Virus record (IMG/VR): IMGVR_UViG_3300042356_001581
Direction: 5' to 3' (one strand)
From: an uncultured virus (IMG/VR IMGVR_UViG_3300042356_001581)
Lineage: Duplodnaviria > Heunggongvirae > Uroviricota > Caudoviricetes
Length of the DNA stretch: 20,000 bases
Shown here: positions 5,311 to 19,573 of the stretch, in pieces
How the letters are laid out: each line of letters begins with the position of its first letter
How positions within the stretch are numbered: position 1 is the stretch's first letter
Program-made: the position numbers and the translations under genes
The notes under the pieces: generated by a model
What the model was told of the DNA's origin: nothing
Seen by the model: only the letters and a program-made list of their open reading frames with translations
The model's database searches: none

Positions 5311-5502
5311 TTATAATTTACTTCTTAAAAAATTAAGTGAATAAAATTTACTCGCAACAACATAACCTATTGTACTTCCTTTTAATATTTGCTTGATTAA
5401 CTTGCCAGACTGTAAATTGTAACACAATCCGCATTTTGTAAACACGTAATTTGTAGCGAAATTTAAACGGTAGTTTGCAATATAATTTACAGTAATAGTC
5501 AT
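5311..5502 (-). CDS. Small hypothetical protein (weak NUMOD4/HNH N-terminus-like)
   Basis: 63 aa; YVFTKCGLCYNLQSGKLIK pattern. Confidence 0.5.
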   Translation of the reverse strand: MTITVNYIANYRLNFATNYVFTKCGLCYNLQSGKLIKQILKGSTIGYVVASKFYSLNFLRSKL

Positions 5503-5526
5503 AGTTAATTGTGTATTAAAGTTACT

Positions 5527-5548
5527 GTTAGCGGATAGTTAGCGGATA
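5527..5548 (+). repeat. Tandem GTTAGCGGATA x2 at the array start; candidate attI-like entry site
   Basis: Exact 11 bp direct repeat; the first cassette core GTTA (5538) has no preceding hairpin. Confidence 0.5.
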
Positions 5549-5592
5549 TGGCAGTAGAACCGAAGAACTACCGCCAAATCCAAGTAACAAGA

Positions 5593-5811
5593 TTACTTTT
5601 TAAAAGAAAACTTATCTCCTAAAATCTCTAATCTTTGACCTAAAACTTGCAAATACTCATTCATCAATCTTGATTGTTTGTAAAGCAAATCTTTGTTTTG
5701 TCGGTCTAAATCAACAAAAGCCTGTGTACGCATAAAATCATTTAAGGAATTTGTTTTAGTTGCCAATTCTTGCGCTTCAATAAGAAGTCTGTCGTAAAAT
5801 GAATCTCCCAT
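5593..5811 (-). CDS. Cassette 1: small helical phage protein (crAss001_48-like)
   Basis: RL..E..EL......L..F.....F..L.....LL..Q...M..Y..VL..R pattern recalled from that family. Confidence 0.6.
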   Translation of the reverse strand: MGDSFYDRLLIEAQELATKTNSLNDFMRTQAFVDLDRQNKDLLYKQSRLMNEYLQVLGQRLEILGDKFSFKK

Positions 5812-5869
5812 AATATTTGTGTTTGGGTTTTATAACTCCGCCCAGAAGTTTAGTGGAAGCCACATCCGC

Positions 5870-5994
5870 TAACAGCTTGTATAGTTAATGCGGTCTATGG
5901 CTTAATTTATTGTTCAGTTTGCACTTGGATTGTTCGGTCTTGAATGGAATTATTCGGCTTATTTTTCCGCACTAACCATATAAGCGAACCGTTA
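5870..5994 (+). repeat. Hairpin site A1
   Basis: TAAC-agcttgtatagttaatgcgg ... ccgcactaaccatataagc-gaacc-GTTA. Confidence 0.85.
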
Positions 5995-6008
5995 TATACA
6001 ATAAAAAT

Positions 6009-6386
6009 TTACCATCGCTCTTTTTTGAATATAATTTGTTTATCTAATTTTATTTGATGTATGGTGTGAAATGTCCGTTCTTTTACATATTTTTTAAATG
6101 TGTTGAAAACTTCTTCCGATACCATTTTACTTTTCACATAATAAATATATGGACTTTTACCACTCATATCATCTCTCCACATATTAAAACCATATCTTTC
6201 CCCATTAGGAAAATTATGTCTATGTTCGTGAATTAAATTATATTTTTTTGATTTAGCTTTATATGGTTTAAATTTACTAATAGCATCTACCATTAATTTA
6301 ATATTCTCAATATCATTTTCATCCACATCTGATTTAAGATATGTGAAATCACCATCATTTGTATCAACTTTTATATTTATTATCAT
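6009..6386 (-). CDS. Cassette 2: hypothetical protein
   Basis: 125 aa ORF bounded by IR gttatatacaataaaaat / atttttactgtatataac. Confidence 0.7.
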   Translation of the reverse strand: MIINIKVDTNDGDFTYLKSDVDENDIENIKLMVDAISKFKPYKAKSKKYNLIHEHRHNFPNGERYGFNMWRDDMSGKSPYIYYVKSKMVSEEVFNTFKKYVKERTFHTIHQIKLDKQIIFKKERW

Positions 6387-6428
6387 AATATTATTTTAAA
6401 ATTATCCAACGCACATTTTTACTGTATA

Positions 6429-6476
6429 TAACAAAGTGTAAAAAACATTAAAACGATTTTTTACACTCAACCGTTA
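6429..6476 (+). repeat. Hairpin site A2 (shortest, 48 bp)
   Basis: TAAC-aaagtgtaaaaaa ... ttttttacact-caacc-GTTA. Confidence 0.8.
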
Positions 6477-6485
6477 TGTGCAAGG

Positions 6486-7292
6486 CTACGAAACTGCATC
6501 TAAACGACTATTCGTTATTTCAATAGCCATTGGATTAATGTCGCAACCTATAAAATTTCGGTTCAGTTCTTTACAAACTACTGCTGTTGTTCCCGAACCT
6601 AAATAGTAATCTGCAACTGTATCACCTTCATTTGAACTTGCTTTTATTATTCGTTCTATTAATGCTTTTGGCTTTTGGGTTGGGTATTTTGAATACTCTT
6701 TTGAATTGCCTTTAAGTGTGTGTATTACCATCCAATCTTCCATAATTTTACCTCCGTTTTTAGATAAAGGGCTGTCGGCTTTACCCATCATTGAGTTACT
6801 TCCATACTTACCTCTTTCTTTACTACTTTCGGAATAATCTGTTAATACGCTTTGCCAATTAAATGTATAATCTTTAGTTTTTGCGTAAGAAAATATATTA
6901 TCGTGTTTTGCATTAAATCTCCTTTTGTTGTTGTTTGGCATAGTGTAGCACCATATAATTTCATTTACAAAATTATCATACCCAAAAATATCATCCATTA
7001 TCAACCTAATCCAATGGGATATTCTATAATCCATTTGTAAATAGATAGTACCTGTGCTTTTTAATACTCGGTGCATTTCTTTTAATCGTGGTAAATAATG
7101 TGCTTCAATTTCACTTCTAATCGGTTTTAAGTCTTGGTAATCTCCAAAGTTTCTGCCAGTTCCATAAAGAATATCACAATAAATCAAATCTACACTTTCA
7201 TCAGGTTGCGACAAAAGGAGTTCAAGGTTATCAACCGCCCTGCACATAACACGGGTTTGGCAAAATGGCTGTTCAGTAATTCTATCAATCAT
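6486..7292 (-). CDS. Cassette 3: N6-adenine/N4-cytosine DNA methyltransferase (beta class)
   Basis: Motif IV-like CDILYG at the N-terminus, YPTQKP, motif I DYYLGSGTT, FIGCDIN. Confidence 0.88.
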   Translation of the reverse strand: MIDRITEQPFCQTRVMCRAVDNLELLLSQPDESVDLIYCDILYGTGRNFGDYQDLKPIRSEIEAHYLPRLKEMHRVLKSTGTIYLQMDYRISHWIRLIMDDIFGYDNFVNEIIWCYTMPNNNKRRFNAKHDNIFSYAKTKDYTFNWQSVLTDYSESSKERGKYGSNSMMGKADSPLSKNGGKIMEDWMVIHTLKGNSKEYSKYPTQKPKALIERIIKASSNEGDTVADYYLGSGTTAVVCKELNRNFIGCDINPMAIEITNSRLDAVS

Positions 7293-7366
7293 TCGTTTTT
7301 AATTTTAAAGTTTAGTAATTCTATTTAGCTTCGGGTTCAGCCACTTCACCAAGCCCGATAACGTTA
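7247..7366 (+). repeat. Hairpin site A3 (contains start codon of 6486..7292)
   Basis: TAAC-acgggtttggcaaaatggctg ... cagccacttcaccaagcccg-ataac-GTTA. Confidence 0.88.
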
Positions 7367-7597
7367 GGTGTAATGCCACTCCGCCACTTCACTTCTATCA
7401 AAATGTGTTTGACGTGAAAAATGTTTAGTCCACCAAGCAAAGGCACGAAATGAACCTCCCCATAAATGCTCATAATATCCTCGATACCATTTTTCACCTA
7501 CTTTAAATTTTAACTCGTAATATGATGAAGGCACTACACCTAACAGCACATTGCCAAAAGTGGGGGTTATCGTTTTTAAATCAGCTTTTACACTCAT
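7364..7597 (-). CDS. Cassette 4: hypothetical protein
   Basis: 77 aa; stop codon is the TTA of the GTTA core; start lies in hairpin A4. Confidence 0.65.
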   Translation of the reverse strand: MSVKADLKTITPTFGNVLLGVVPSSYYELKFKVGEKWYRGYYEHLWGGSFRAFAWWTKHFSRQTHFDRSEVAEWHYT

Positions 7598-7666
7598 ATC
7601 AAATTTTGTATTTCAATTAAAGTTTAGTGGTATAAAGCCCCACCTTCGGCAATCTGCAAAACGTTA
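7541..7666 (+). repeat. Hairpin site A4
   Basis: TAAC-agcacattgccaaaagtgggg ... ccccaccttcggcaatctgc-aaaac-GTTA. Confidence 0.88.
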
Positions 7667-7681
7667 GCAGTAATATTGTGG

Positions 7682-7921
7682 CTACTTACCAATAGGTCTA
7701 TTGCAAGTTGCACAGATATAACTACCATTCATTAAATAACATTGAGATTGTTGACAGCCACAATACATACTGCTAACATCGGCTATACGCAAGTTTTTTG
7801 CTTCCGTTAGTCGGTTAATAACATTGTTTGCCTCTATCAACATTTCAATCAATTTGTCTTTTTCTACCATTTGATACATCTCTACTTTTTCAGAGTGTGT
7901 CATTTCAATTACTTGCATCAT
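7682..7921 (-). CDS. Cassette 5: small protein with Cys-rich C-terminus
   Basis: 79 aa; CGC...C...CATC at the C-terminus; first ~49 aa encoded within hairpin A5. Confidence 0.6.
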   Translation of the reverse strand: MMQVIEMTHSEKVEMYQMVEKDKLIEMLIEANNVINRLTEAKNLRIADVSSMYCGCQQSQCYLMNGSYICATCNRPIGK

Positions 7922-7981
7922 ATATTTTAATTTTAGTGTTTCAAATTCGCAAAAAACCTGACGTATAGCCGAGAACCGTTA
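7774..7981 (+). repeat. Hairpin site A5 (longest, 208 bp)
   Basis: TAAC-atcggctatacgcaagttttttgc ... gcaaaaaacctgacgtatagccga-gaacc-GTTA. Confidence 0.85.
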
Positions 7982-7984
7982 TGG

Positions 7985-8287
7985 TTAATATTTGTATTCT
8001 GCTATTTTAGAAGCTAATCCCCAACTTTGCAACTTACCACCGTAGTTAGATATAAATCTAAATACATCGCCCATATAAGTAGGTTCAGATGGTGTATAAA
8101 TATAAGTTCCTGCAATAGTTTCTAATCGTAATTTCCAAGTATGATTATCTTTAAAAACTTTCGCATCGAAACCCATACATAGTTTTAATTCTTCTGCAAT
8201 TAAATTACATTTTTCTTCATTAAACATACTAACCATAACACTCGTTTGGCTCAATGCCTTATTTTCGTTTATATCGTTTTTCATCAC
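7985..8287 (-). CDS. Cassette 6: hypothetical protein
   Basis: 100 aa; start (GTG 8287 or ATG 8284) in hairpin A6. Confidence 0.65.
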   Translation of the reverse strand: MMKNDINENKALSQTSVMVSMFNEEKCNLIAEELKLCMGFDAKVFKDNHTWKLRLETIAGTYIYTPSEPTYMGDVFRFISNYGGKLQSWGLASKIAEYKY

Positions 8288-8352
8288 GTTTTATTTTTAA
8301 TTAGATAATTTAGTTTTCATAACTCGGCACTAAGCCAAGCGAGGGAACGTTA
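8236..8352 (+). repeat. Hairpin site A6
   Basis: TAAC-actcgtttggctcaatgcc ... ggcactaagccaagcgag-ggaac-GTTA. Confidence 0.88.
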
Positions 8353-8571
8353 GCAACTATGCTCTAATTTGTATATTTTCTCTATTTCATCTACTCTTAA
8401 TGGGTCACAATATCTACCTCTTTGATAATTAACAACTCTAAATATGTATTTTTCGGTTAATTTATGTCTTTCTTCCCAATTGACTTTATTCCACCAAGCA
8501 ATAGCACAATTGCTAACAGCATTTTGTGGCAATTGCGGGGTTTGGATTTCTTTTTCCATTTTAGTTTTCAA
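8350..8571 (-). CDS. Cassette 7: hypothetical protein (likely ATG at 8559)
   Basis: Stop codon is the TTA of the core; start in hairpin A7. Confidence 0.6.
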   Translation of the reverse strand: MKTKMEKEIQTPQLPQNAVSNCAIAWWNKVNWEERHKLTEKYIFRVVNYQRGRYCDPLRVDEIEKIYKLEHSC

Positions 8572-8643
8572 TTTAAAGATTAGTATTTTTTTGTATGGTA
8601 TGTGTTAATTCGTCCGCAACTAACCACAAGATGCAAAACGTTA
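8514..8643 (+). repeat. Hairpin site A7
   Basis: TAAC-agcattttgtggcaattgcgg ... ccgcaactaaccacaagatgc-aaaac-GTTA. Confidence 0.85.
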
Positions 8644-8647
8644 TGCC

Positions 8648-8947
8648 TTATTTTGAAGAACGAGACGAACCAAAAGTTAAGATACCTGCTCCAAGAACAA
8701 AACCGAAGTTATACCAACCTCCATTGTTATTATAAGCATAAAATGCAATATCATCAGAAAATAAACTACCAATAAATGAAATTGGCGCAACTATTCCGTG
8801 CCATAAACCGCCCCAAAATCCATAAGGAGAACTTGTAATACAATCTTGTACGTGTGGGCTTACATCGGCACAAGAAGTTAAAGAAAGAAAAACAAGGCAT
8901 AACAGCCATTTGGCAAGATTGCGGGTTAATTTTGTGTTTTGAAACAT
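8648..8947 (-). CDS. Cassette 8: putative lipoprotein/membrane protein
   Basis: Lipobox-like LTSC after a hydrophobic stretch; GFWGGLWHG and GWYNFGF hydrophobic segments. Confidence 0.75.
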   Translation of the reverse strand: MFQNTKLTRNLAKWLLCLVFLSLTSCADVSPHVQDCITSSPYGFWGGLWHGIVAPISFIGSLFSDDIAFYAYNNNGGWYNFGFVLGAGILTFGSSRSSK

Positions 8948-9029
8948 AGTTTTTAAATTTAAAGATTAGTAATATTTTGCGTGTTTGGGTCTTGAATCGT
9001 CCGCAACCTCGCCAAGTGGCAGGACGTTA
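8900..9029 (+). repeat. Hairpin site A8
   Basis: TAAC-agccatttggcaagattgcgg ... ccgcaacctcgccaagtggc-aggac-GTTA. Confidence 0.88.
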
Positions 9030-9038
9030 GGCGCAATG

Positions 9039-9215
9039 CTAATCCAAGACACCTGCCAACCAAATTGGACAAAATATAAGCCAGTACAAAAATCGTTCTT
9101 GTAAACTGACTGCTAAGTTGTCTTTACCTATTGTTTTGCAATCATTCCTCCAAATCAAATAGAATGGAATAAAAAGAACTATTTGCAGTAATACACATAT
9201 CAATATTTTGTTCAT
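9039..9215 (-). CDS. Cassette 9: 58 aa two-TM membrane protein (not in the ORF track)
   Basis: Read manually: MNKILICVLLQIVLFIPFYLIWRNDCKTIGKDNLAVSLQERFLYWLIFCPIWLAGVLD*; fills cassette 9026-9249. Confidence 0.7.
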   Translation of the reverse strand: MNKILICVLLQIVLFIPFYLIWRNDCKTIGKDNLAVSLQERFLYWLIFCPIWLAGVLD

Positions 9216-9245
9216 TTTGTTTCAATTTGTGAGAAGCACTGCACC

Positions 9246-9333
9246 TAACAGCACATAGGCAATAGTTGCCAGAAACCTCTCGGTTAATAATTTAATTTAT
9301 CGTAGGCAACCATCGCCTATCTGCAAAACGTTA
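9246..9333 (+). repeat. Hairpin site A9
   Basis: TAAC-agcacataggcaatagttgcc ... ggcaaccatcgcctatctgc-aaaac-GTTA. Confidence 0.88.
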
Positions 9334-9552
9334 TGGTTTATGCTTCGATTGGTTTTCATAAGAACTTATATTTTTGCTCATATTGAAATAAATAATTGTA
9401 AAAACAATTGCTCCAAATGTTACGATTCCCCAATCTCCAATTTTATCAGATGCTTTATATGTAAATAATGCCGTTCCAAACCAACACATAATCGAACACC
9501 ATTTCATTTGTCTTTTAAAGTTTTTCGCTTCTTTAATAAATTCTTCACTCAT
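9331..9552 (-). CDS. Cassette 10: small two-TM membrane protein
   Basis: 73 aa, two hydrophobic helices; stop codon is the TTA of the core. Confidence 0.7.
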   Translation of the reverse strand: MSEEFIKEAKNFKRQMKWCSIMCWFGTALFTYKASDKIGDWGIVTFGAIVFTIIYFNMSKNISSYENQSKHKP

Positions 9553-9583
9553 TACGTTTTCGTTTTATGAACCGCACTAACCA

Positions 9584-9710
9584 TAACAAGTGTTTGGCAA
9601 AAAAGCGGGTTCGGTTATTAATTTAAAATTTGTTTTGTGTCTTTATAATTCAGGCTTAATCGAAGTTTTATGCTTTCTTAATCGCTTCTTCGCCAAGCAC
9701 TCGAACGTTA
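9584..9710 (+). repeat. Hairpin site A10
   Basis: TAAC-aagtgtttggcaaaaaagcg ... cgcttcttcgccaagcact-cgaac-GTTA. Confidence 0.85.
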
Positions 9711-10502
9711 GTGGCAATACTCCGAAGCCCTCCGAACAGCGACATCGTAATATTGTTTTTCCTTTTCTATTCCAATTGATTTGCGATTTAATTTGATACA
9801 AGCCAAGTTTGTTGTACCGCTTCCTGTTGTGTTATCCAATACCATATCACCTTCATTAGTATATGATTTCACAAGCATTTCAAGTAAAGCAAGTGGTTTC
9901 TGTGTTGGGTGTATCGTTCCATCAAGTTTTGTTTTTTGTTTATCTGAAGCAAAAACTTGTACACTTCTTGGGTATCTGTCAGTTTCTCCGCCACCGCTTA
10001 CATCTTGCTTTACTTTTCCATACACTTCTGTTTTATTGCAAACTTCGGCTTTCTTGGTATAGGTATTTACAGGCTTATGTCCTTCTGTTTTTTGTGGATT
10101 AAACTTTGGTGTTTTATTGTAAAATACTAAAATGTTTTCGTGTGCTTTCATAGGCATTTTCTTTGCATTAAAATATCCTGTTGCTTGTGTTTTCTCCCAA
10201 ATCCATTCGTATTTTAACCATTCCAAATTTGAGCAACCAAGCACTTTATCAAATGGTGTTTGTGCAAATAAAATTACCACCCCATTATAATTTAGTATTC
10301 GTTTATATTGTTCCCAAAGTTTATTCAAATCCAAAACAGAATCCCATTTGCAGTTAGTAGTACCATAAGGCAAATCGCAAATAATAGCATCAATTGATTT
10401 ATCCTCAATAAAAGGAAAAACATCGAAACAATCTGCGTTCACAAAAGTACTGCCACTAACACGGGTTTGGCAAAATGGCTGTTCAGTAATTCTATCAATC
10501 AT
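9708..10502 (-). CDS. Cassette 11: N6-adenine/N4-cytosine DNA methyltransferase (beta class)
   Basis: ICDLPYG, YEWIWEK, HPTQKP, LDNTTGSGTT, IGIE. Confidence 0.92.
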   Translation of the reverse strand: MIDRITEQPFCQTRVSGSTFVNADCFDVFPFIEDKSIDAIICDLPYGTTNCKWDSVLDLNKLWEQYKRILNYNGVVILFAQTPFDKVLGCSNLEWLKYEWIWEKTQATGYFNAKKMPMKAHENILVFYNKTPKFNPQKTEGHKPVNTYTKKAEVCNKTEVYGKVKQDVSGGGETDRYPRSVQVFASDKQKTKLDGTIHPTQKPLALLEMLVKSYTNEGDMVLDNTTGSGTTNLACIKLNRKSIGIEKEKQYYDVAVRRASEYCH

Positions 10503-10527
10503 TAGTTTTTAATTTAAAGATTAGTTT
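10457..10527 (+). repeat. Truncated hairpin site A11 (left half, copy of A3)
   Basis: First 47 nt identical to 7247-7293; right arm and GTTA core absent. Confidence 0.75.
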
Positions 10528-10854
10528 TTACTTAGTCGTTATCCGTAACAACAAAATACACCACCCGACTTTATCCGACTTCATAAAATCTTGTATTTCA
10601 GAAATTAGTTGCTCTTTAGTTTCAGTTACAAATTCTTGCCTTCCATCAGGTTGTGGATTTCCATTATTCATTTTGTAGGCAAACCAAATTTTAGCATAAT
10701 ATTCACTACTTTCTTCATCAGGATTTTCCACTATACAAGATTTTATTCTACTATCAAGCGAAGTTATCTCATCAGAAGTAACTGCACCTAACAGTGGTTT
10801 TGACTTATTGCCACATTCGGCTTCATTTAATGATTGTTTTGTACTTGTATTCAT
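10528..10854 (-). CDS. Cassette 12: hypothetical protein
   Basis: 108 aa; start in hairpin A12. Confidence 0.65.
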   Translation of the reverse strand: MNTSTKQSLNEAECGNKSKPLLGAVTSDEITSLDSRIKSCIVENPDEESSEYYAKIWFAYKMNNGNPQPDGRQEFVTETKEQLISEIQDFMKSDKVGWCILLLRITTK

Positions 10855-10917
10855 TGGTTTTTAATTTAAAGATTAGGTCTTATTTTATTGGCAACAAGAC
10901 AAAGCCACCAAACGTTA
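10789..10917 (+). repeat. Hairpin site A12
   Basis: TAAC-agtggttttgacttattgcca ... tggcaacaagacaaagccac-caaac-GTTA. Confidence 0.85.
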
Positions 10918-10926
10918 TGAGCAAGT

Positions 10927-11229
10927 TTACTGACCGTCTTCGTAAAGACTCATTTCAAAACCGTGAGAGTAAAAATCTCCAAGTCCACCCGCATCAATAA
11001 CTATTTTGAAATTATAATCTTCGTGAGAAACTACAATTTGAGTTCCTTCATCATCTTCTATGTTTTCAGTTGGTATTCCAACACATTCTATAAAGTGTTG
11101 CATACTTTGATTATTATCCATACTCATATTATCATTTTCATTAATAATACGATATGATGTTTCTCCTTTTGCAAATTCATCAAACATTTGTGTTATCGAA
11201 TTTGGTATCTCATAAATTTCTGTTTTCAT
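10927..11229 (-). CDS. Cassette 13: acidic hypothetical protein
   Basis: 100 aa ORF; IR gttatgagcaagtt / aacctgctcataac. Confidence 0.7.
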   Translation of the reverse strand: MKTEIYEIPNSITQMFDEFAKGETSYRIINENDNMSMDNNQSMQHFIECVGIPTENIEDDEGTQIVVSHEDYNFKIVIDAGGLGDFYSHGFEMSLYEDGQ

Positions 11230-11263
11230 AATAATATTTTGTTTAAATTACACAACCTGCTCA

Positions 11264-11391
11264 TAACAGCAATTTGGCAATATGTCGGTTTTGGTCTTTA
11301 ATTTAATAGTTGTTTTGTACTTGTAGAAATTCGGTATTTCCGAATGTATTAGCTTCCTTAAACCGACACATCGTCAAGTTGCATAACGTTA
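11264..11391 (+). repeat. Hairpin site A13
   Basis: TAAC-agcaatttggcaatatgtcggttt ... aaaccgacacatcgtcaagttgc-ataac-GTTA. Confidence 0.88.
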
Positions 11392-11400
11392 GTAGCAAGA

Positions 11401-11625
11401 CTACGTTTTATCTTTCAAAGACAAAACCTTGAATGTTGGGTAGCCTTTAGGTATTCCAAAACCAAAACCAATATAAACAGAATGATGTCCCCAACATAAA
11501 CCTATTCCGTAAACACTTACGATTTCTAATATAGTCAATACTCCAAATAAATATGGTGTAATTGCAAAATCTTCTTTATTTAATTTGGTATTTTGATAAC
11601 CTCCTATAATTTTTGGTTTTCTCAT
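11401..11625 (-). CDS. Cassette 14: small hydrophobic hypothetical protein
   Basis: 74 aa ORF filling the cassette. Confidence 0.65.
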   Translation of the reverse strand: MRKPKIIGGYQNTKLNKEDFAITPYLFGVLTILEIVSVYGIGLCWGHHSVYIGFGFGIPKGYPTFKVLSLKDKT

Positions 11626-11662
11626 TTCAATAATATTTAGTTTTAATAATCCGTCCAGCTAC

Positions 11663-11735
11663 TAACACACGTTTGTAGCTAGTGGAGGAATCTACACTTC
11701 CGAATACGCCACCATCTACAAGCGTTGGAAGGTTA
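11663..11735 (+). repeat. Hairpin site A14
   Basis: TAAC-acacgtttgtagctagtgg ... ccaccatctacaagcgt-tggaag-GTTA. Confidence 0.8.
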
Positions 11736-11742
11736 GCAGTAA

Positions 11743-11937
11743 TTATTCCCAATCTTCCTTATCAGCTTGAGTTTCTGCCATTACAGCTATTATTTGCCTT
11801 TCACGTTCTGTAAATTCAAACCAATTAGTTTGCCAATCGTAAGGAACGTAATTTCTCCAATCGTGAACTTTTCCTTTTTCTTCAAACTTTGGATTTTCAA
11901 TATCTATTAATTCTGTAAAATTTTCAAATATGTTCAT
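11743..11937 (-). CDS. Cassette 15: hypothetical protein
   Basis: ATG at 11937 (MNIFENF...) preferred to TTG at 11967; HDWRNYVP motif. Confidence 0.65.
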   Translation of the reverse strand: MNIFENFTELIDIENPKFEEKGKVHDWRNYVPYDWQTNWFEFTERERQIIAVMAETQADKEDWE

Positions 11938-11961
11938 CTCGTTTAGTATTATAACTACTGC

Positions 11962-12087
11962 TAACAACGGTTATACAATAGTTGGGTTAATTGTTTAATT
12001 TAAAGTCTGTTTTGTGTCGAGATAATTTGTGTTAATCGGAAAATTACGGCTATCTTATCCCAACCATCGTATAGCCGTCAAACGTTA
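11962..12087 (+). repeat. Hairpin site A15
   Basis: TAAC-aacggttatacaatagttggg ... cccaaccatcgtatagccgt-caaac-GTTA. Confidence 0.88.
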
Positions 12088-12096
12088 GCAGTAATA

Positions 12097-12993
12097 CTAT
12101 ATTCCATCTCCGAATGAAGTCACTACATTAAAATCTTTTTCTTTTCTTTTTTCTTCCACCCTCTTTAAAGAAATATTAAAATAATCCATATTATTCTCAA
12201 TTCCGATAAAGTTCCTATTTGTGTTTATACAGGCAATTCCTGTTGTCATTGAGCCACCAAACATATCTAAAACAGTTTGATATTCTTTTGTGAAAGTTTT
12301 TATTAAGTTTTCCATTAGTTTTAACGGCTTTTGGGTTTCGTGTAACTTGTCTGAAATATGCGAACTTTCTTCAATTAAATTTGTTTTGTAAATTTCAGAA
12401 GAAAAAGTACCTGTACCATACTTCAAATAACAATCTGTAATAGTTCCACCAATCTTATATGGCTTAAACATATACACAATTGGTTCTACTATTGGTGCTA
12501 AATTACCCAATCTTCTATTATCGCTATAATCTGAATTTCTTTTACCTATTACTTGACCTATCCTTTGTGCTTTAAATGGTGCTTTTTTCTTATTCCAACT
12601 AATTACATCTTTTAATATTAGACCGCTATTTTCTCCTGCAACCGTAAACCTATGTTGATATTGCCTTCCTGTAAAACATAATATTGGAGACGCAGGTTTC
12701 ATAATTCGATAACACTCTTTTAAAAAACTTTCGCAAAATATTTGAAATTCAATACTTATTTGCTTGTCTTTATCACTCCATCCATTTTTAGGCTTACCTC
12801 TACTTTTAAATATTTTACTATTTTGTTGCGCAGGGGAACTCCCTAATAATGCAGTATTGGTATTAGAATGTTTAACATCCCAATCACTAAATGAAATCCC
12901 ATAAGGAATATCTGAAATTATAGCATCAATACTTTCATCTGCTATCAATTTCATTTGTTCTATTGCATCTCCGTATCTTAAATCTATTGTCAT
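12097..12993 (-). CDS. Cassette 16: N6-adenine/N4-cytosine DNA methyltransferase (beta class)
   Basis: ISDIPYG, HETQKP, LDMFGGSMTT, FIGIE. Confidence 0.9.
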   Translation of the reverse strand: MTIDLRYGDAIEQMKLIADESIDAIISDIPYGISFSDWDVKHSNTNTALLGSSPAQQNSKIFKSRGKPKNGWSDKDKQISIEFQIFCESFLKECYRIMKPASPILCFTGRQYQHRFTVAGENSGLILKDVISWNKKKAPFKAQRIGQVIGKRNSDYSDNRRLGNLAPIVEPIVYMFKPYKIGGTITDCYLKYGTGTFSSEIYKTNLIEESSHISDKLHETQKPLKLMENLIKTFTKEYQTVLDMFGGSMTTGIACINTNRNFIGIENNMDYFNISLKRVEEKRKEKDFNVVTSFGDGI

Positions 12994-13087
12994 AATTTTA
13001 TTTTAATATTTTGCCATCGCTTTAAAAAAGAAAAGAAAAAGGTTCAGTTCTCCGAATGAGCATTTGTGGTTAATTACCGTACTACTG

Positions 13088-13148
13088 TAACACCACCTAT
13101 ACGCAAGTTTTGTGAAAAACAAAACCTGACGTATAGCTGTAAACGTTA
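13088..13148 (+). repeat. Hairpin site A16
   Basis: TAAC-accacctatacgcaagttttgt ... acaaaacctgacgtatag-ctgtaaac-GTTA; arms related to A5. Confidence 0.8.
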
Positions 13149-13152
13149 GCCG

Positions 13153-13605
13153 TCATTCTAAAACGACCGCATCCAACGACTTTAATCTGTTTAAAATATA
13201 AAGGTTTGGTCTTATGTATTTATTTTCTCTTCTGAATTGTTCTTTGTCGATTTCTGACAAAAATTTATCATACAAAAAAGTTGCAACCGCACCGCTTCGA
13301 GAAATTCCAGCAGAACAATGAACCATAAATACTGACTTTTCTTTATGTTTTTCGATAAAATCAACTATTTCTTTTAGTTCTTTATCATTTGGTTTTTCAT
13401 ATTTTAACTCACCATTTTCATATAAATCTTCTTCAATATCCCACATTTTAACTTGCAGAAAATTGTCTATTGATTTATCAAATTTTTGCTCGTTATTATC
13501 AATATCGAGTATTGAAATAAAACAAGCATAGTCGTAATATTTAAACTCTTTATCAGTAAAGTTTTTATCGAAAACTAATTTTGGTATTGCTTTTATTTGC
13601 TTCAT
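13153..13605 (-). CDS. Cassette 17: protein-tyrosine/dual-specificity phosphatase-like protein
   Basis: Catalytic HCxxGxxRS motif (VHCSAGISRS) and a C-terminal PN motif. Confidence 0.85.
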   Translation of the reverse strand: MKQIKAIPKLVFDKNFTDKEFKYYDYACFISILDIDNNEQKFDKSIDNFLQVKMWDIEEDLYENGELKYEKPNDKELKEIVDFIEKHKEKSVFMVHCSAGISRSGAVATFLYDKFLSEIDKEQFRRENKYIRPNLYILNRLKSLDAVVLE

Positions 13606-13638
13606 TTTAAATTATTTAGTGGAAAAAGAACGAACGGC

Positions 13639-13756
13639 TAAAAAAGTGTATAAGCAATAACCGTTAGGCGTTTTTAACTATTGCGGTTGTTAATATTTAT
13701 TTTATATTTCTAATCAAGTTTTGTGTTCGGCAACTTCGCCAAGCCTACAAAAGTTA
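13639..13756 (+). repeat. Degenerate hairpin site A17
   Basis: Core reads TAAA instead of TAAC; right end acttcgccaag-cctacaaaa-GTTA does not pair with the left arm. Confidence 0.55.
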
Positions 13757-13972
13757 TAAAGCATTTAAAGCTGTAACTATTTTATTCGCCATTTCATCAC
13801 AATATTCTTCGCCGTTATCATAAACTAAATGGCAAACCACTTTATTCATATCGTTGTCTATAATTGCGAATAAAGCAAAGTCAGCTACAATTACTTTATT
13901 GATAGAAAAACGGCTTATAACAGCGGTTTTTCCGTATTGTGGAATTTGGGTATTTTTTAAAAGCTTAGTCAT
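13754..13972 (-). CDS. Cassette 18: hypothetical protein
   Basis: 72 aa; stop codon is the TTA of the core; start lies in the half-site beginning at TAAC 13918. Confidence 0.65.
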   Translation of the reverse strand: MTKLLKNTQIPQYGKTAVISRFSINKVIVADFALFAIIDNDMNKVVCHLVYDNGEEYCDEMANKIVTALNAL

Positions 13973-13990
13973 AACTTTAAAATTTAATTA

Positions 13991-15745
13991 TTATTTGTTT
14001 TTTATTTTAATGAACGGTAAAAAATCTTCTAATTCTTTAATCATATCGAACTCCACTTGCTTTGTTTTTGGAAAGCACTTAGAAATATCTTTTAAGGTAT
14101 TCCTAATATCCCTACCGCTAAAAGGCTTGTATTTTGCCCATAGTTTTTCAATAGTAGGCGTTTCAATCGTCATACCGAAGTTTTCAGAAAGTATATTCCA
14201 TAACTGAACCGTTTCTTCAAAAGTTGGTAAATCATACTTGATATGTAATGTAACCCTTGATATTATAGCATCATCAATTGTGTCAGGTCTATTTGAGGTT
14301 AAAAATAAAATCCCGTTGTAGTATTCCATTAATCGTAGAAACGTTCCTACTATGCAATTTTGAAGTATATCGTTGCCTCTTTTGTAAATATAACTATCTG
14401 CTTCGTCAATAAGTAAAACTGCGTCCCACTTTTCGGCACGATACAGTATCTTATTTAGATTATTTTCTATGTCAGCAACACTTATACCAAGTTGTGATGA
14501 TTGAACGCAATACAGCGGTTTTTTCATCACCTCCGAATAAACTTCAGCAGTAAGTGTTTTTCCAAGACCCGATTCTCCTGTGCTTAAAATTACGATACCG
14601 CCACTTTTTCCTGAAATTAAATCTTCAAAATTATTTTTAGAACCGATTAACGATGAAAGTATTTTTTTTCTTTGCTGACTAATAACAAGCTTATCTATGA
14701 TTTCGGAGTTGTAAACGTAGGGCAAAATATTATTGACGTGAACTATTGCATATCTAAAAGAAGTAATGTCGTAAGTTAAAACGTATGGGTGTTCAGGTAT
14801 CTCAACAGTACCAAAACTGTCACTAGAAACAGTATAAGTCAAAGACGCACTTTTAAGGTTATCTACAACAAGTTTGTTTGACTTATTTTCATCATTCAAA
14901 TCTTTCCAGCTTCTAATACCACCCTTGCTATCTGAAATAACATAGCCTTTAGTTTCACAAGTGTAAACCTTACCTATTTGTTTGGAAACCAAATTAGCTT
15001 TTTCTAAATCTTTTTGGTAAACATCAAAGTAATCGTCATCCATTAGCATAATGTTTTTTCCTGCTAATATTTTAGACAATAAAAAACTATCTTTTTTGTT
15101 TATAGTTTTTGCTTTTAGCTTCTTTTTACTTTTATCATCGTCATCGTCATCGTCATCATTTTGATTAGATAAAGTATATTCGTTAAACTCCTCTTCGCTA
15201 ATTAAAGTAATGTCGCTTTTATAGAAATTTATATTTTTGGATTGCTTGTCTTTTTTTATTTCAGAATCACTATTCCAATGACTGTTTGATTCGATTGAAA
15301 TGTAAGTAAAACCCAAACTCATATAAGCATCATCATCTCTACTTCTTGCTTTATATTTTACAGACGTTACTGCGCAAGGAACTACCATACCGTCAGGATT
15401 CATTTTTAAAACCCATTTGTATTTCGAGTTTTTGAAAATTGATATTAGGGTTTTCTCCAACTGCGGTAATGAAGTGATTATTGCATCTTTTGGATTGCTT
15501 AGATTCTTAATCCAATTGTTTAGTGTGGAAATGGTTTTCCCATTACACTTTTTCTCGACAAGCAACTTTTCCAATAGTTCGCAATCTTCTTTTTTAACTT
15601 CAGATAAATCTAAGTAAACAGACTGGGCTTTGTCATAGTTTTTTTGACTTAAAGAGTCCCTAACAGACCAACTTAAATGATTGTTTAAAAAGTTAGCAGA
15701 AACTCTTAATTCGTCAATAATTGATAGGCTTAATGTTATATTCAT
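13991..15745 (-). CDS. AAA+ ATPase (single C-terminal AAA module, long N-terminal domain)
   Basis: Walker A GESGLGKT, Walker B LLIDEAD, sensor-1 LTSNR, D.AIISR; ATG 15745 preferred because the TTG at 15772 overlaps the promoter. Confidence 0.88.
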   Translation of the reverse strand: MNITLSLSIIDELRVSANFLNNHLSWSVRDSLSQKNYDKAQSVYLDLSEVKKEDCELLEKLLVEKKCNGKTISTLNNWIKNLSNPKDAIITSLPQLEKTLISIFKNSKYKWVLKMNPDGMVVPCAVTSVKYKARSRDDDAYMSLGFTYISIESNSHWNSDSEIKKDKQSKNINFYKSDITLISEEEFNEYTLSNQNDDDDDDDDKSKKKLKAKTINKKDSFLLSKILAGKNIMLMDDDYFDVYQKDLEKANLVSKQIGKVYTCETKGYVISDSKGGIRSWKDLNDENKSNKLVVDNLKSASLTYTVSSDSFGTVEIPEHPYVLTYDITSFRYAIVHVNNILPYVYNSEIIDKLVISQQRKKILSSLIGSKNNFEDLISGKSGGIVILSTGESGLGKTLTAEVYSEVMKKPLYCVQSSQLGISVADIENNLNKILYRAEKWDAVLLIDEADSYIYKRGNDILQNCIVGTFLRLMEYYNGILFLTSNRPDTIDDAIISRVTLHIKYDLPTFEETVQLWNILSENFGMTIETPTIEKLWAKYKPFSGRDIRNTLKDISKCFPKTKQVEFDMIKELEDFLPFIKIKNK

Positions 15746-15769
15746 AGTGTTTTTTTTGTTTCTTGTTTG

Positions 15770-15777
15770 CAAATATA
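15770..15777 (-). promoter_or_regulatory. Bacteroidota -7 promoter element TATATTTG
   Basis: TAnnTTTG match 25 bp upstream of ATG 15745; the leader AAAAAAACACTATG is shared with the gene starting at 446. Confidence 0.6.
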
Positions 15778-15830
15778 GTATTATTATTTAAAATAATTAT
15801 TATTTTAAATAATAATATTAATTTTTAATC

Positions 15831-16124
15831 TTAACCCTCTTTTTGTTTATATTTTTCAGGAACTATGTCGTTGTGATGATGAAACAAAGAAGCCCAAACC
15901 AAACTATTTGCTATGGTTATGGTTCTTGCTAAATATTCTTGATTTATTGCCTTTTCAAGCAAACCAATCAAGTAATCAAAATTAGCTTCCAAGTCTTCGC
16001 ACAATTCTAAAATGGTCTTTACATTGTAATTTATAAATTGCTCGTCAAAAAGCAATGAATTAGGCTCTCTATTCATACAGTAAATCAAAACTTGTTCGTT
16101 GTGATATTTCGGCTTTTTAGTCAT
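15831..16124 (-). CDS. Hypothetical protein
   Basis: 97 aa ORF in operon packing. Confidence 0.65.
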   Translation of the reverse strand: MTKKPKYHNEQVLIYCMNREPNSLLFDEQFINYNVKTILELCEDLEANFDYLIGLLEKAINQEYLARTITIANSLVWASLFHHHNDIVPEKYKQKEG

Positions 16125-16128
16125 TTGA

Positions 16129-16638
16129 TTATTTGTTAGGTGAACCTATTTCTTTTAATGCGGTTTCGGTAAGTTTTATTGAGTCAAACTTTGCTAAAGA
16201 TTCGATATTAGTTAATCCTGAACTTAACCCCCAAGTTTGAGTAATCTTGTCAAGCCAGAACAAATGAATTAAACCCGAAACATCTGAAATTGATTTTGAG
16301 TAAGCAATTCCATTATTTACATCAACAACCTTAAAATCTTTAATTAAAACACGTTCTTTTGCTTCGTTGTATTTTTCTAAATTATACAACCAATCTTTTG
16401 CGTTTTGCTCTTCAGTACAATCTGCGTAATGTTCTTGCAATGGCTCTTCTAAAAAATTACCGAATTCATCGCAAGGAACAACCATTCCAATTTCAATATC
16501 TTTAAGTAAGAAGTCTGCATATTTTTGAATCAAATAAAATCTTCTTGTTCGGTCTGATTGCTGATGACCGATTGACTGAATTTCCATTCCAATATTTCCT
16601 AGCTTCTTTACGAAGCTAATCATAGGTATTAATTTCAT
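16129..16638 (-). CDS. Hypothetical phage protein, paralog of 16635..17159
   Basis: Shared KYA..L......M.VPC...G...E.P block. Confidence 0.75.
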   Translation of the reverse strand: MKLIPMISFVKKLGNIGMEIQSIGHQQSDRTRRFYLIQKYADFLLKDIEIGMVVPCDEFGNFLEEPLQEHYADCTEEQNAKDWLYNLEKYNEAKERVLIKDFKVVDVNNGIAYSKSISDVSGLIHLFWLDKITQTWGLSSGLTNIESLAKFDSIKLTETALKEIGSPNK

Positions 16639-17159
16639 AATCGTATTTGTTTTTTAAAGTTGTCGGTTAGTTTAAATTCGACACCTGTTTTTAATAAATC
16701 TTCAATAGTATTAATAGGCGTTTGAATATTTTTAATTGCTTCAATAAACATCGCAGGTTTACCATCACGAAAGTATATTACATTATCTTCAAAAATAACC
16801 TCGTTTCTAATTCCTGTTTCAACTCCTGAAAGACTATTGATAAAAAATCCCCAACCTTGAAATAAAACCGTATTACAGGCTTCTTCATATTCTGAATTTT
16901 GACCATAACAACCCTCGATACTGCATTTACCTCCTATACAATAATCAATAGGACTGCAAGACTTTTTACAAGGTTTTGGCTTTTCCATAATATCTCCATT
17001 TGACTGACAAGGAACAAACATATTTTTTTTAATTGGTTGCTTTAATATTTTAGCATATTTAACAACTCTGTCAATGTATAAGCTTTCGGTTATTTGGTCT
17101 GTAAATAACAAATCAAATTGTTTAATATTAAAATCCGTTGTGCTAATTAAATTTTCCAT
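16635..17159 (-). CDS. Hypothetical phage protein, paralog of 16129..16638
   Basis: Same blocks plus a Cys-rich insert; 4 bp ATGA overlap with the downstream gene. Confidence 0.75.
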   Translation of the reverse strand: MENLISTTDFNIKQFDLLFTDQITESLYIDRVVKYAKILKQPIKKNMFVPCQSNGDIMEKPKPCKKSCSPIDYCIGGKCSIEGCYGQNSEYEEACNTVLFQGWGFFINSLSGVETGIRNEVIFEDNVIYFRDGKPAMFIEAIKNIQTPINTIEDLLKTGVEFKLTDNFKKQIRL

Positions 17160-17162
17160 AAT

Positions 17163-17468
17163 TTACTTTATTGATTTTCCTCGCTTATTCATAGAAGCGT
17201 AGGGGATTAATTTATCGGTGTTATTTTGTTCTACAAATTGCACAACATTTAATCGCTCTGCAATACGAATCATTTGTGATTGATGACCGAGTTTATCGAA
17301 GAAAGTTTTACATACAATTTCCTCACCGTTTATTGATGCTTTGTGGCAAACAAAATAACTTTGTTTTTCGGCGATTTCATTTAATAAATCTTTCGCTCTT
17401 TTTGGACTAACTATTCGGTCTTTTGACAATAGACAGTTATGACAACATTCTTTATAAACTTTTAGCAT
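17163..17468 (-). CDS. Cys/His-containing hypothetical phage protein
   Basis: CCHNC...F.CHK...C pattern; ATG 17468 avoids overlap with the upstream gene. Confidence 0.65.
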   Translation of the reverse strand: MLKVYKECCHNCLLSKDRIVSPKRAKDLLNEIAEKQSYFVCHKASINGEEIVCKTFFDKLGHQSQMIRIAERLNVVQFVEQNNTDKLIPYASMNKRGKSIK

Positions 17469-17484
17469 AAATTTACGATTAATA

Positions 17485-17679
17485 TTAATTAGAAATAACC
17501 CCGTATTGTTCGGCAAAACTACCGCCTTTTTTTATCAGAAAAACAAACTCTTCGTAAGTCAAATTTACACCGCCACACATACGCATTGCTAACTTGTGCC
17601 AACCACTAACATCGTCCATTCTTTTCAAGTAGTTTTCGTAAAGTTTTTTAAGTTCTTTTTTTGTTTTTAATTTAGCCAT
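17485..17679 (-). CDS. Hypothetical protein
   Basis: 64 aa ORF with A-rich start context. Confidence 0.6.
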   Translation of the reverse strand: MAKLKTKKELKKLYENYLKRMDDVSGWHKLAMRMCGGVNLTYEEFVFLIKKGGSFAEQYGVISN

Positions 17680-17704
17680 TTTCTTTTTTAAATTTTTCTT
17701 ATAA

Positions 17705-17926
17705 TTACTTATAACTTTTTATTATTTCCGTGATACTTTTTTTATCGACAGGCATAGCGTGTACACCTCCGATAAAAGGGTCGGAATCATAAAACTGCAT
17801 TTTACCGTTTGGGTCGTAATCAACAAAGCCATTAATACGGTTATGTTGATTCATAATTTGCAATACTCTTTCCCAATCTTTTTTTTCTATAGGAGGAAAT
17901 AAATTTTTATCCGTTGATTGTTCCAT
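17705..17926 (-). CDS. Hypothetical protein
   Basis: 73 aa ORF in operon packing. Confidence 0.6.
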   Translation of the reverse strand: MEQSTDKNLFPPIEKKDWERVLQIMNQHNRINGFVDYDPNGKMQFYDSDPFIGGVHAMPVDKKSITEIIKSYK

Positions 17927-17928
17927 AA

Positions 17929-18603
17929 TTATTCAAAACTAATTGCTTGTAATTCTTCTAACTTTTCTTGAATCCATTCCGATAGTAATTCTTGACGTTT
18001 TTCTTCAATGAAATTTTCGGCATCATCTTCCCATCCATCAATATCAGTATTTAAACTTTGTTCATCGGCAATAGCCTGTTTAAGTTCTTCTTCGTCTTGT
18101 TCTTCGTAATCGAAATCAATACTTTCAATTTCGCTAATAGCACTTTCAAGAGAATCAACTCTTTCTTGAAGCAAATCTGCCGTTGGAGAATACTGTAAAT
18201 TTTCTGGCATATTATCATAAGATTCCTGCGTAGTATCTCGCAAGTCTTCCAACTCTTCTTTTATGCTTTCAGCGAAATCATTTAATTCCTCTGATGAATC
18301 GGTTGAAAAATCTTCGATTTGCTCTGCGATTGAATACAAAGTGGAATAGTATGCGCTTTGAGTTAATTCCGATGCTCTCGGACGAGTTTTACCGTATTGT
18401 TTTGGAGAATTTTGGAATTGCCACCAATAATAACTTTCGCCCCTTGCTATAAAAATAGTATCGGTATCATCTCTCGGAATTGTTCTATCGGTTTTAGATA
18501 AAGTTTGCCCTTGTCTTTTACCTTTTTTGCTAACGTACTCTACTCGCTTTCCGTAATTGAAAATGTCTTTCTGTGCTTTGTTTACAAAATTTGCTCTTGC
18601 CAT
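17929..18603 (-). CDS. Hypothetical phage protein (basic N-terminus, acidic helical C-terminus)
   Basis: 224 aa; GESYYWW and NMPENLQ motifs. Confidence 0.75.
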   Translation of the reverse strand: MARANFVNKAQKDIFNYGKRVEYVSKKGKRQGQTLSKTDRTIPRDDTDTIFIARGESYYWWQFQNSPKQYGKTRPRASELTQSAYYSTLYSIAEQIEDFSTDSSEELNDFAESIKEELEDLRDTTQESYDNMPENLQYSPTADLLQERVDSLESAISEIESIDFDYEEQDEEELKQAIADEQSLNTDIDGWEDDAENFIEEKRQELLSEWIQEKLEELQAISFE

Positions 18604-18611
18604 TTTATTTA

Positions 18612-18854: not shown

Positions 18855-18889
18855 TTGGTTCAATTTATTGAATGGTGCTTAGTAAATAG

Positions 18890-19090
18890 TTATGCAACAG
18901 TTTGCGAAAGAGTAAACCGAGTAAATTTTGTTTCTAAATCTTCTTCAGTTGTGTATTTAAAATTTATAGAATCTAGTAATTTTTTAAAGTTTTCGGCATC
19001 AGAAGACAATAAGCGAATAGTCTTTTTTTCTTGGAATAGCTCAAGCGTTTTACCCCAGCTTGGATTTGGTATTATAGTTGTGATTTTCAT
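18890..19090 (-). CDS. Cassette 19: hypothetical protein
   Basis: 66 aa; stop codon is the TTA of the core. Confidence 0.6.
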   Translation of the reverse strand: MKITTIIPNPSWGKTLELFQEKKTIRLLSSDAENFKKLLDSINFKYTTEEDLETKFTRFTLSQTVA

Positions 19091-19124
19091 TTCGTTTACG
19101 TTTACGTTTAAAAAACCGATTGCA

Positions 19125-19251
19125 TAACAATATATTGTAGCAATTAAGGCTTTGGTTATTAATTTATTTATGTTCTTGTACTTGGTTTTATTGGGTCTTT
19201 AATCGAAGCATAAGGCTTTCTTATCCTTAACTGCTACAATAATGAACGTTA
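19125..19251 (+). repeat. Hairpin site A19
   Basis: TAAC-aatatattgtagcaattaagg ... ccttaactgctacaata-atgaac-GTTA. Confidence 0.85.
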
Positions 19252-19263
19252 GAGGTAATTTGT

Positions 19264-19485
19264 TTACGCATCTAACCACCTTTCAATTTCATTTGGTTTA
19301 TATGTTTTACCTGCAAGTGCTACCCAAAATTGGTTATGTTTATTAAATTTTAATGGTTGTCTAACCCCATCAGCATAACATATAAACCAAAGATTTTCGG
19401 TAGGTGTTCTATCGTCACCATTAACCCACAAACTACCGCTAACAGCAGGTTTATTCAATGCGGATTTTTCGTTATTATTGTTCAT
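19264..19485 (-). CDS. Cassette 20: hypothetical protein
   Basis: 73 aa; start in hairpin A20. Confidence 0.65.
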   Translation of the reverse strand: MNNNNEKSALNKPAVSGSLWVNGDDRTPTENLWFICYADGVRQPLKFNKHNQFWVALAGKTYKPNEIERWLDA

Positions 19486-19564
19486 TTCTGCTTCTATTTA
19501 ATTTTTTTATTAGTTTGAAATATTGTGCTTCTAAGTCCACACTAAATAAACCTGCGAACCGTTA
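19440..19564 (+). repeat. Hairpin site A20
   Basis: TAAC-agcaggtttattcaatgcgga ... tccacactaaataaacctgc-gaacc-GTTA. Confidence 0.88.
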
Positions 19565-19573
19565 GCAGTAATA

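Follow-up and report, generated by a model that had tools for sequence, protein, structure and literature searches.

Hairpin-bounded gene cassettes in Flavobacterium-type phages as candidate sites of an integron-like recombinase distinct from host XerCD

A 20,000-nucleotide stretch of DNA from an uncultured Caudoviricetes virus (IMG/VR record IMGVR_UViG_3300042356_001581; the whole stretch is called the window here) contains a long run of small genes separated by hairpins, and the question raised by this locus is which enzyme, if any, recombines them. The first-pass annotation of this DNA had read the two ends of the hairpin at 7239-7374 as dif-like junctions, compared them with the folded single-stranded attP of CTXphi, and suggested that they are recombined either by a host Xer-type enzyme or by an atypical integron-like integrase. 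In this study, we analyzed the hairpins, their relatives in other phages and in host chromosomes, and the recombinases that accompany them.

Judging from DNA matches, the window is lake phage DNA with a Flavobacterium-type host, since it matches Flavobacterium and Cellulophaga phages. The stretch is present in 24 lake-water sequencing runs, of which 20 are flagged as potential sources, and its gene content is phage-type (methyltransferases, DUF932, exonuclease, AAA ATPase). Between approximately 5527 and 14000, and again from 18870, TAAC...GTTA hairpins separate small genes of the minus strand. All array ORFs are located on the strand opposite to the top-strand reading direction, and about half of them (approximately 10 of 20) have their start inside a hairpin loop. 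Four methyltransferase genes are found within the 20 kb. The main features are as follows.

5527..14000, plus strand: main array; its genes, three for methyltransferases and about 15 small ones, are all minus-strand
Main-array hairpins, first part: 5870-5994, 6429-6476, 7247-7366, 7541-7666, 7774-7981, 8236-8352, 8514-8643, 8900-9029
Main-array hairpins, remainder: 9246-9333, 9584-9710, 10789-10917, 11264-11391, 11663-11735, 11962-12087, 13088-13148
Main-array half-sites: left halves alone at 10457 and 13918; right half at 13753
5510..5549, plus strand: left end of the array, with the first D arm as tandem 11-bp copies (G at 5527 and 5538) and a weak attI-like score (1.8, training median 9.0)
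18870..19564, plus strand: second cassette run, with a start core (G at 18889, weak attI-like score 1.1), hairpins at 19125-19251 and 19440-19564, then a methyltransferase gene toward the window edge
6474..7363, plus strand: the 890-bp cassette owning the 7239-7374 hairpin, with homologues behind 12 other upstream neighbours, including attI-like sites adjoining a recombinase
6486..7292, minus strand: DNA methyltransferase gene (phrog_67), inverted relative to the attC convention, with its start inside the hairpin loop

All 17 complete hairpins of the window are on one strand. A geometry scan returned 17 rows, corresponding to 16 array hairpins and a chance pair at 4322. A trained matrix, for which window sites were among the seeds, found 14 sites on the plus strand (5870-5994 included), none on the minus strand and none in each of 20 block shuffles; the matrices used for detection were trained on phage sites and miss divergent ones. 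The array is an insertion in this lineage, because two related contigs are syntenic with the window on both flanks and have no array. Five relatives found via the DUF932 gene contained neither hairpins nor a recombinase in the stretches examined.

Several details of the array deserve mention. The D-arm stack at 5527-5549 has counterparts in two other loci (L075 and L034), where similar short stacked cores precede a cassette; these stacks are possibly scars of repeated integration and excision. The left half-sites at 10457-10527 and 13918-13990, like those of many seeded loci, have lost the right half just past an A-rich translation start and still provide the start codon of a gene. At 13628-13756 is a decayed hairpin, whose TAAC core is mutated to TAAA and whose halves are not complementary. 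Two methyltransferase cassettes have starts that are 89% identical (12080-12183 and 19557-19660) and different hairpins in front. Other cassette genes encode a dual-specificity phosphatase-like protein (13153-13605, at the Pfam cut-off) and a crAss001_48-related protein (5593-5811).

The arm-6-arm and arm-10-arm parse of the junctions was borne out. The junctions that had been quoted are located at 7239-7266 and 11954-11981 (TAAC) and at 7343-7374 and 9006-9037 (GTTA), and the long spacer measures 10 nt in 14 of the complete window hairpins, 9 nt in two and 8 nt in one. The hairpin at 7239-7374 is organized as follows.

7239..7249, plus strand: arm A, outer, ends in TAA; complements the opening bases of its own cassette (6474)
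7250..7255, plus strand: 6-nt spacer CACGGG; putative minor crossover at the TAAC(A) core
7256..7266, plus strand: arm B, inner; fold partner of arm C
7267..7342, plus strand: stem extension and loop, with the A-rich translation start and ATG (7292, minus strand) of the methyltransferase gene
7343..7353, plus strand: arm C, inner; fold partner of arm B
7354..7363, plus strand: 10-nt spacer CCCGATAACG; putative main crossover in the GTTA core at its right end (G at 7363)
7364..7374, plus strand: arm D, outer; opens the next cassette and is complementary to arm A at 7533-7543

Read outward, the arm consensus sequences are TTAnnnGnnGt (A), nTtnnnnnaAt (B), cTtnnnGnngn (C) and TTAtnngnaAt (D). That the arm truly spans 11 bp is evident from inner-arm positions 2 and 10, which are invariant in all 19 left halves of the window. 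The recurring 1x5 internal loop that had been noticed near the core is the prevailing geometry as well: 135 unique TAAC/GTTA pairs have it, against 28 with a 1x4 loop and 1-7 at any one of six further offsets, counting those in which 8 or all 9 stem positions pair, over the window and 140 loci (L001-L140) that were seeded by the left arm of this hairpin, so that its variants are over-represented.

Pairing spans the whole element: the two outer arms pair, as do the two inner ones (B-C). A single TAAC junction is not a dyad by itself; arms A and B pair in 41.6% of cells versus 42.6% in shuffles, and there is no covariation. Across 240 adjacent pairs, arm A complements the D arm of its own cassette (5.58/8) far better than that of the next one (2.88/8). 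These comparisons show that a cassette consists of a GTTA core, an inverted gene and the hairpin with its TAAC, its two outer arms being complementary. We abandoned the view of the hairpin as a free, MITE-like insert, since arm A follows the start of its own cassette. Searches of Rfam with the whole window and with 5400-20000 gave nothing meaningful at E up to 5. The Flavo-1 RNA motif (RF01705), considered as the identity of the repeat, was rejected: there was no match at the gathering score or at E up to 5, and the alignment rows differ. Immediately left of TAAC, three bases of arm A differ between two otherwise identical phages (L128, 5351-5355; L130, 4845-4849); in one phage they complement the start of the arm's own cassette, and in the other they do not.

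No recombinase gene or remnant was found in the window by tblastn and HMM searches. Cultured genomes of Muminvirus, Lillamyvirus and Hattifnattvirus have the same arrays, and a tyrosine recombinase is encoded in 4 of the 10 phage records searched, in two of which (P0001 and P0002) it is located at an array end. With the protein sequence of this recombinase alone, we retrieved 79 viral loci, a few of them duplicates. Among the 57 with at least 1 kb of upstream sequence, 29 have hairpins upstream of the integrase gene, on the opposite strand as expected (75 sites in 232 kb), and 28 have no hairpin site there. Downstream, hairpins occur in one of 76 loci (2 sites in 365 kb), and the other strand has none. 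In 46 of 56 candidates, counted without a shuffle control, the start of the recombinase gene is 40-53 bp from a GTT core that adjoins a D arm; on the bottom strand, the commonest phage version of this attI-like core reads TAA^CTACTATATGTA. In two of the viral loci (L161 and L171), the first cassette starts like the cassette owning the 7239-7374 hairpin. Small ORFs at 5311-5502 and 18612-18863 of the window and at 1397-1594 of L128 occupy the position of the recombinase in related phages (respectively, 63 aa without a family match, phrog_18952 and mumin gp003).

The same family is encoded in 48 of 81 Flavobacterium genomes and in 89 of 121 Flavobacteriaceae genomes. The chromosomal proteins (L279-L308 and L363-L392) have approximately 350-400 residues, including an N-terminal extension, and their arrays are downstream of the gene; the phage proteins have 265-290 residues and upstream arrays, a layout that was seen in none of 20 chromosomal loci. 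An attI-like core that reads much like the phage core is found downstream of the gene in 25 of the 30 best Flavobacterium loci, at 103-106 bp in 14 of these (no shuffle control). The first downstream hairpin has a 10-nt spacer in 13 of 14 Flavobacterium cases and an 8-9-nt spacer in 16 of 16 cases of the family sample. No hairpin was found within 1.5 kb downstream in 17 of the 30 Flavobacterium loci, a strict scan found sites in just 5 of 18 longer chromosomal stretches, and a loose IUPAC pattern matched the 81 Flavobacterium genomes no more often than a reversed control. Chromosomal copies of cassettes, judged by eye, have their genes in the conventional direction.

These proteins could be distinguished from the XerC and XerD of the same hosts, which form a separate branch (support 100/99, midpoint root), and the tree did not split phage, chromosomal and IS-linked members into clades; L183, L188 and L357 are IS-linked recombinases without a clear array. 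The family scores below the XerC, XerD and IntI cut-offs (TIGR02249 matches in two pieces, under its cut-off), and its best NCBIfam match is NF040815 (206 and 166 bits, cut-off 220). The best fold matches are XerA (5hxy, 4a8e) and IntI4 (2a3v). Relative to IntI, the recombinases are approximately 45 residues short; the motifs KG.K.R and HxxRH are 54 residues apart, against 66 in one host Xer and 100-101 in two IntI proteins, and alignment with IntI4 leaves a gap. The IntI-specific insertion (I2) is absent. On an Acinetobacter indicus plasmid, p80-1-2-tetX3 (L356, 3480-5560), a member of the family that is shortened and sister to L177 precedes a GTTA core and D-like arm (4317); then come tet(X3) and, at 5523, a TAAC with a weak left-half score of 1.5. 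Its layout recalls the first cassette of the chromosomal form, and the same protein is found on many Acinetobacter plasmids.

By adjacency, then, the suggested alternative of an atypical integron-like integrase fits: a distinct tyrosine recombinase adjoins an attI-like site and hairpins with matching geometry. The existence of a dedicated family also explains the missing local intI without Xer. We consider it likely that cassettes recombine at this element as part of an integron-like system in Bacteroidota and their phages, served by a dedicated, I2-less recombinase.

A first rival is that host XerC and XerD recombine the folded hairpins, as they do CTXphi attP(+). The overall geometry is indeed that of CTX attP, whose spacers, according to a portion of PMC3089051, are 12 and 7 or 6 nt, and the part of the earlier reading that concerned the substrate stands: four arms fold from one strand, with unequal spacers. 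The choice of enzyme does not, as the arms are unlike host dif. We read host dif from two Flavobacterium genomes, in agreement with a Flavobacterium dif prediction in the supplement of PMC3025954, and scored the arms against the dif of locus L310. Beyond TTA, the outer arms match the host XerC arm at 1.59/8 for A (null 2.31) and 2.64/8 for D, barely above chance, and no arm class resembles the XerC arm. Against the host XerD arm, the inner arms reach 5.7/11 (B) and 4.0/11 (C) with a null of 3.4, essentially none reaching at least 9/11.

Arms B (5.71/11, null 3.41) and D (3.57/8, null 2.45) are above chance against the XerD arm, and this excess favours host Xer. It is driven by T2 and A10 (0.90-0.98), with G5 and T6 at only 0.19-0.46. 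The XerD core TTATGT is absent from all 346 inner arms (0/168 B and 0/178 C), and occurs in 11 of 169 A arms and 15 of 221 D arms; in attI arms read with a 5-nt spacer, TATGT is found in 13 of 48. The arms counted come from related sequences and do not represent independent events. The base after the cut is C in the hairpin sites and T on both strands of host dif, a difference that is partly built in because AAC belongs to the site definition used. Passages of PMC3089051 state that CTX integration requires base pairing with the dif spacer; next to the cut such pairing was not found here, the sites reading CG after TAA and the host dif spacer TTT or TAT. By our own count from the same source, CTX attP arms match dif1 at 10-11/11 and 8/11.

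The earlier impression of likeness to dif was inflated because E. coli dif was used for the comparison and because the quoted example is among the most dif-like in the window (8/11 on two arms, window means 3.1-6.6). The XerC arm of E. coli dif matches the outer arms at 2.9/8 (null 1.7), better than the XerC arm of the host does. The annotation had named an absence of any likeness beyond TAA/TTA as the outcome that would speak against Xer. Comparison of the arm classes with host dif did not strictly give that outcome, because T2, A10 and a trailing AAT are common to both. What the arms and dif have in common is a loose TT......AT frame, and a single loose consensus runs across all four arms instead of one C arm and one D arm. 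The resemblance appears to be that of one recombinase family and not that of a XerC/XerD pair.

Two further observations favour host XerCD: Mumin6-1 has no tyrosine recombinase, yet its relatives shuffle cassettes, and proviruses at dif-like sites in Bacteroidetes are described in part of PMC3091885. The lack of a recombinase of its own, expected of a Xer-exploiting element, holds for the window and for mumin6-1 and is not true of many related phages and hosts. Against host XerCD, the arrays adjoin a different recombinase, and no matrix-scored site was found at eight host XerC/D loci (approximately 1.1-1.5 kb per side). We therefore regard recombination by host XerCD as very unlikely, and as unlikely even if a helper role for these proteins is allowed. 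It is the least likely part of the earlier reading; the enzyme cutting the hairpins is most probably a different recombinase, little described so far and encoded in many hosts and related phages.

Comparison of phage genomes suggests where the cassettes are exchanged. In 10 cultured Flavobacterium phages, 42 of 51 junction pairs (not independent events) fall within the GTTA core; of the other nine, three are at most 14 nt from it, two are just left of a TAAC, and four are in loops. The near-duplicates mumin6-2, 6-4 and 9-3, three of the 13 phage records, were left out of this count. Near-identical isolates differ by clean single-cassette indels of 506, 439 and 342 bp, whose ends have only 6-12 nt in common, and one fixed site in the cultured phages is followed by six different cassettes in the first position. 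Comparison shows cassette gain, loss and reordering at the GTTA core in cultured phages that have no integrase.

Across the viral loci, identity profiles switch sharply at both cores. The hairpins upstream of a cassette differ in 23 of 24 families of cassette starts seen at least twice, and the hairpins at gene ends differ in 16 of 40 gene families seen at least twice; both counts concern related sequences and not independent events. Because of these proportions and the junction counts, GTTA, the junction with the 10-nt spacer, is read as the main crossover and TAAC as a secondary, less frequent one, the cut position being resolved to 4-12 shared bases. Site orientation is the same throughout the window and eight cultured phages; TAAC swaps would therefore be either top-by-top events or homologous exchange at the arms. 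They would also alter N-termini, since about half of the array genes start in a loop. Open left flanks of the seeded hairpin were found in 15 of 24 cases with a leader versus 18 of 43 without, a reading-frame test that does not discriminate.

Some of these data could be seen differently: the hairpins might be expression or processing elements (translation starts, RNA stems), and the mosaic might result from homologous or microhomology recombination of phages at conserved cores. The gene starts in loops, the half-sites that persist without partners and the four junction pairs inside loops are in keeping with this idea, and core homology could also account for some of the TAAC-side swaps. However, the 6-12 nt common to indel ends, the complementary ends kept by each cassette, the recombinase with an attI-like core at a fixed distance, and the lack of an Rfam family match all speak against it, and we give it only a slim chance. 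Also very unlikely, finally, is a mixed synapse in which the dedicated recombinase cuts and host XerD occupies the non-cleaving arm, at least at attI: in phage attI, (A)TATGTA is frequent in the platform arm, one base nearer the cut than in dif, but this motif is kept neither in chromosomal attI of Flavobacterium (TATA plus variable bases) nor in the inner arms of the hairpins, and common ancestry with Xer is the simpler account.

Returning to an integron-like system with a dedicated recombinase, the two strands of the sites do not fold equally well. The bottom strand folds better in 198 of 220 sites, with a mean core pairing probability of 0.66 versus 0.25 for the top strand, because A.C pairs on the top strand correspond to G.T pairs on the bottom strand at arm positions 10 and 7. 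Position 10 has this arrangement in 79% of 374 inner and 81% of 139 outer stems, and position 7 in 54%; the first inner pair is reversed in 65%. These conserved mismatches favour folding of the strand that is presumably cut, a substrate choice to which the crossovers point. No extrahelical base was found in 374 sites, which pair in register over 16 positions (the first nine were used for site selection). A portion of PMC5027507 reports the same G.T bias in attC and that loss of extrahelical bases favours top-strand recombination, and TAAC swaps fit here for the latter reason.

We propose that the minus (bottom) strand folds into a four-arm site with the 1x5 loop and that a single-subunit-type tyrosine recombinase of the XerA/IntI-related group without the IntI insertion, linked to these sites by adjacency, cuts 5'-TAA^C. 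One strand would be exchanged with an attI-like duplex or another hairpin, and replication would resolve the junction. The cut, the single-strand exchange and the replicative resolution are modelled on integron and CTX biology as given in part of PMC4792948. The 4-nt bulge and the A.C mismatch at the first inner-arm pair may hinder a second cut, replacing extrahelical bases in this function. Less often, two top strands might recombine at TAAC, moving a hairpin with its start codon and a short leader onto another gene. For the window, the enzyme could act in trans, supplied by the host chromosome, by a co-infecting phage or by another part of this phage's own genome; alternatively, the array could now be idle. 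With no recombinase, no good attI and two orphan left halves, this array may be partly domesticated.

How does this system compare with known ones? Like integrons and CALINs, it has AAC/GTT cores, crossover at the GTT end, complementary cassette ends, the bottom-strand fold bias with G.T pairs (PMC5027507, in part), a recombinase by an attI-like site (in relatives, not in the window) and a fixed first position for new cassettes. It departs from them in several ways: the arms are 11 bp long with a 6/10-nt spacer pair, the recombinase has no IntI insertion, the first 16 stem pairs are free of extrahelical bases, the TAAC end exchanges frequently, phage genes are inverted and often start in the hairpin loop, and chromosomal arrays are downstream of the recombinase gene. 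It thus seems to work like an integron and fails IntI membership.

With CTXphi attP(+) and other IMEX, the hairpins have in common a pair of inverted 11-n-11 sites whose spacers differ in length. The pair folds into a single duplex-like site that has a bulge and no extrahelical bases, and the longer spacer is on the strand that is presumably cut here. The hairpins differ in that the arms are not host dif, the partner would be an attI-like site or a hairpin and not dif, there are many tandem sites, and the recombinase is a dedicated one. Close to the present family are also NF040815, its best NCBIfam match, and the "integron-like" subgroup of simple tyrosine recombinases of 10.1101/542381, which notes IS91/IS3-linked members without the IntI insertion; in the portion of that source available, insertion-less members are assigned neither cassette arrays nor Bacteroidota hairpin sites. 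In the arrays described here, as in pdif modules, gene modules are located between short Xer-like sites. In the pdif modules of Acinetobacter, the sites are 11-6-11 duplexes that alternate in orientation and have true XerC and XerD arms, whereas the present sites are co-oriented hairpins (14 on plus, 0 on minus) with a 10-nt spacer on one side and no dyad covariation.

Escudero et al. 2016 are said to have imagined an intermediate between Xer-exploiting phages and integrons. A tentative possibility, which we hold to be somewhat less probable than its opposite, is that the present system is a living form of it, with an I2-less recombinase and CTX-like, bulge-only hairpins. Both strands would be used, as strand choice rests only on wobble pairs and spacer asymmetry: bottom cuts would shuffle cassettes, and top cuts would graft a hairpin and start codon, building new cassettes. 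Lytic phages that lack the enzyme would borrow it from their host, and exchange partners would be limited by spacer length, which is 10 nt in Flavobacterium and 8-9 nt in the remaining family loci that were sampled. The same system may have first captured tet(X3).

We found no description of this cassette system in the literature searched, which left most subscription journals outside. In the main text of PMC7077304, the words "cassette" and "integrase" occur zero times. The hairpins might be contained in the MITE lists of the PMC11602168 supplements; parts of PMC9723704 and of the supplement of PMC2864571 were further sources on prior knowledge. What the present analysis adds is the test against host dif, the wobble asymmetry and the matching chromosomal geometry in Flavobacterium.

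The sections of PMC13700133, PMC11523902 and PMC10013915 consulted call Bacteroidota genomes integron-free by standard screens, and an excerpt of PMC8618304 lists Bacteroidota among the phyla with integrons. The recombinase described here is found in most Flavobacteriaceae genomes sampled, despite the integron-free reports. The phage cassettes are rich in DNA methyltransferases, and part of PMC7077304 reports that methyltransferase content tracks plating efficiency in cultured phages that carry the arrays; for these reasons, the system could tune host range. Since cultured phages and hosts exist, the claim is testable now. If the system works as proposed, it would represent folded-strand cassette recombination without an I2 domain or extrahelical bases, and would bear on the origin of integrons and on the making of new cassettes.
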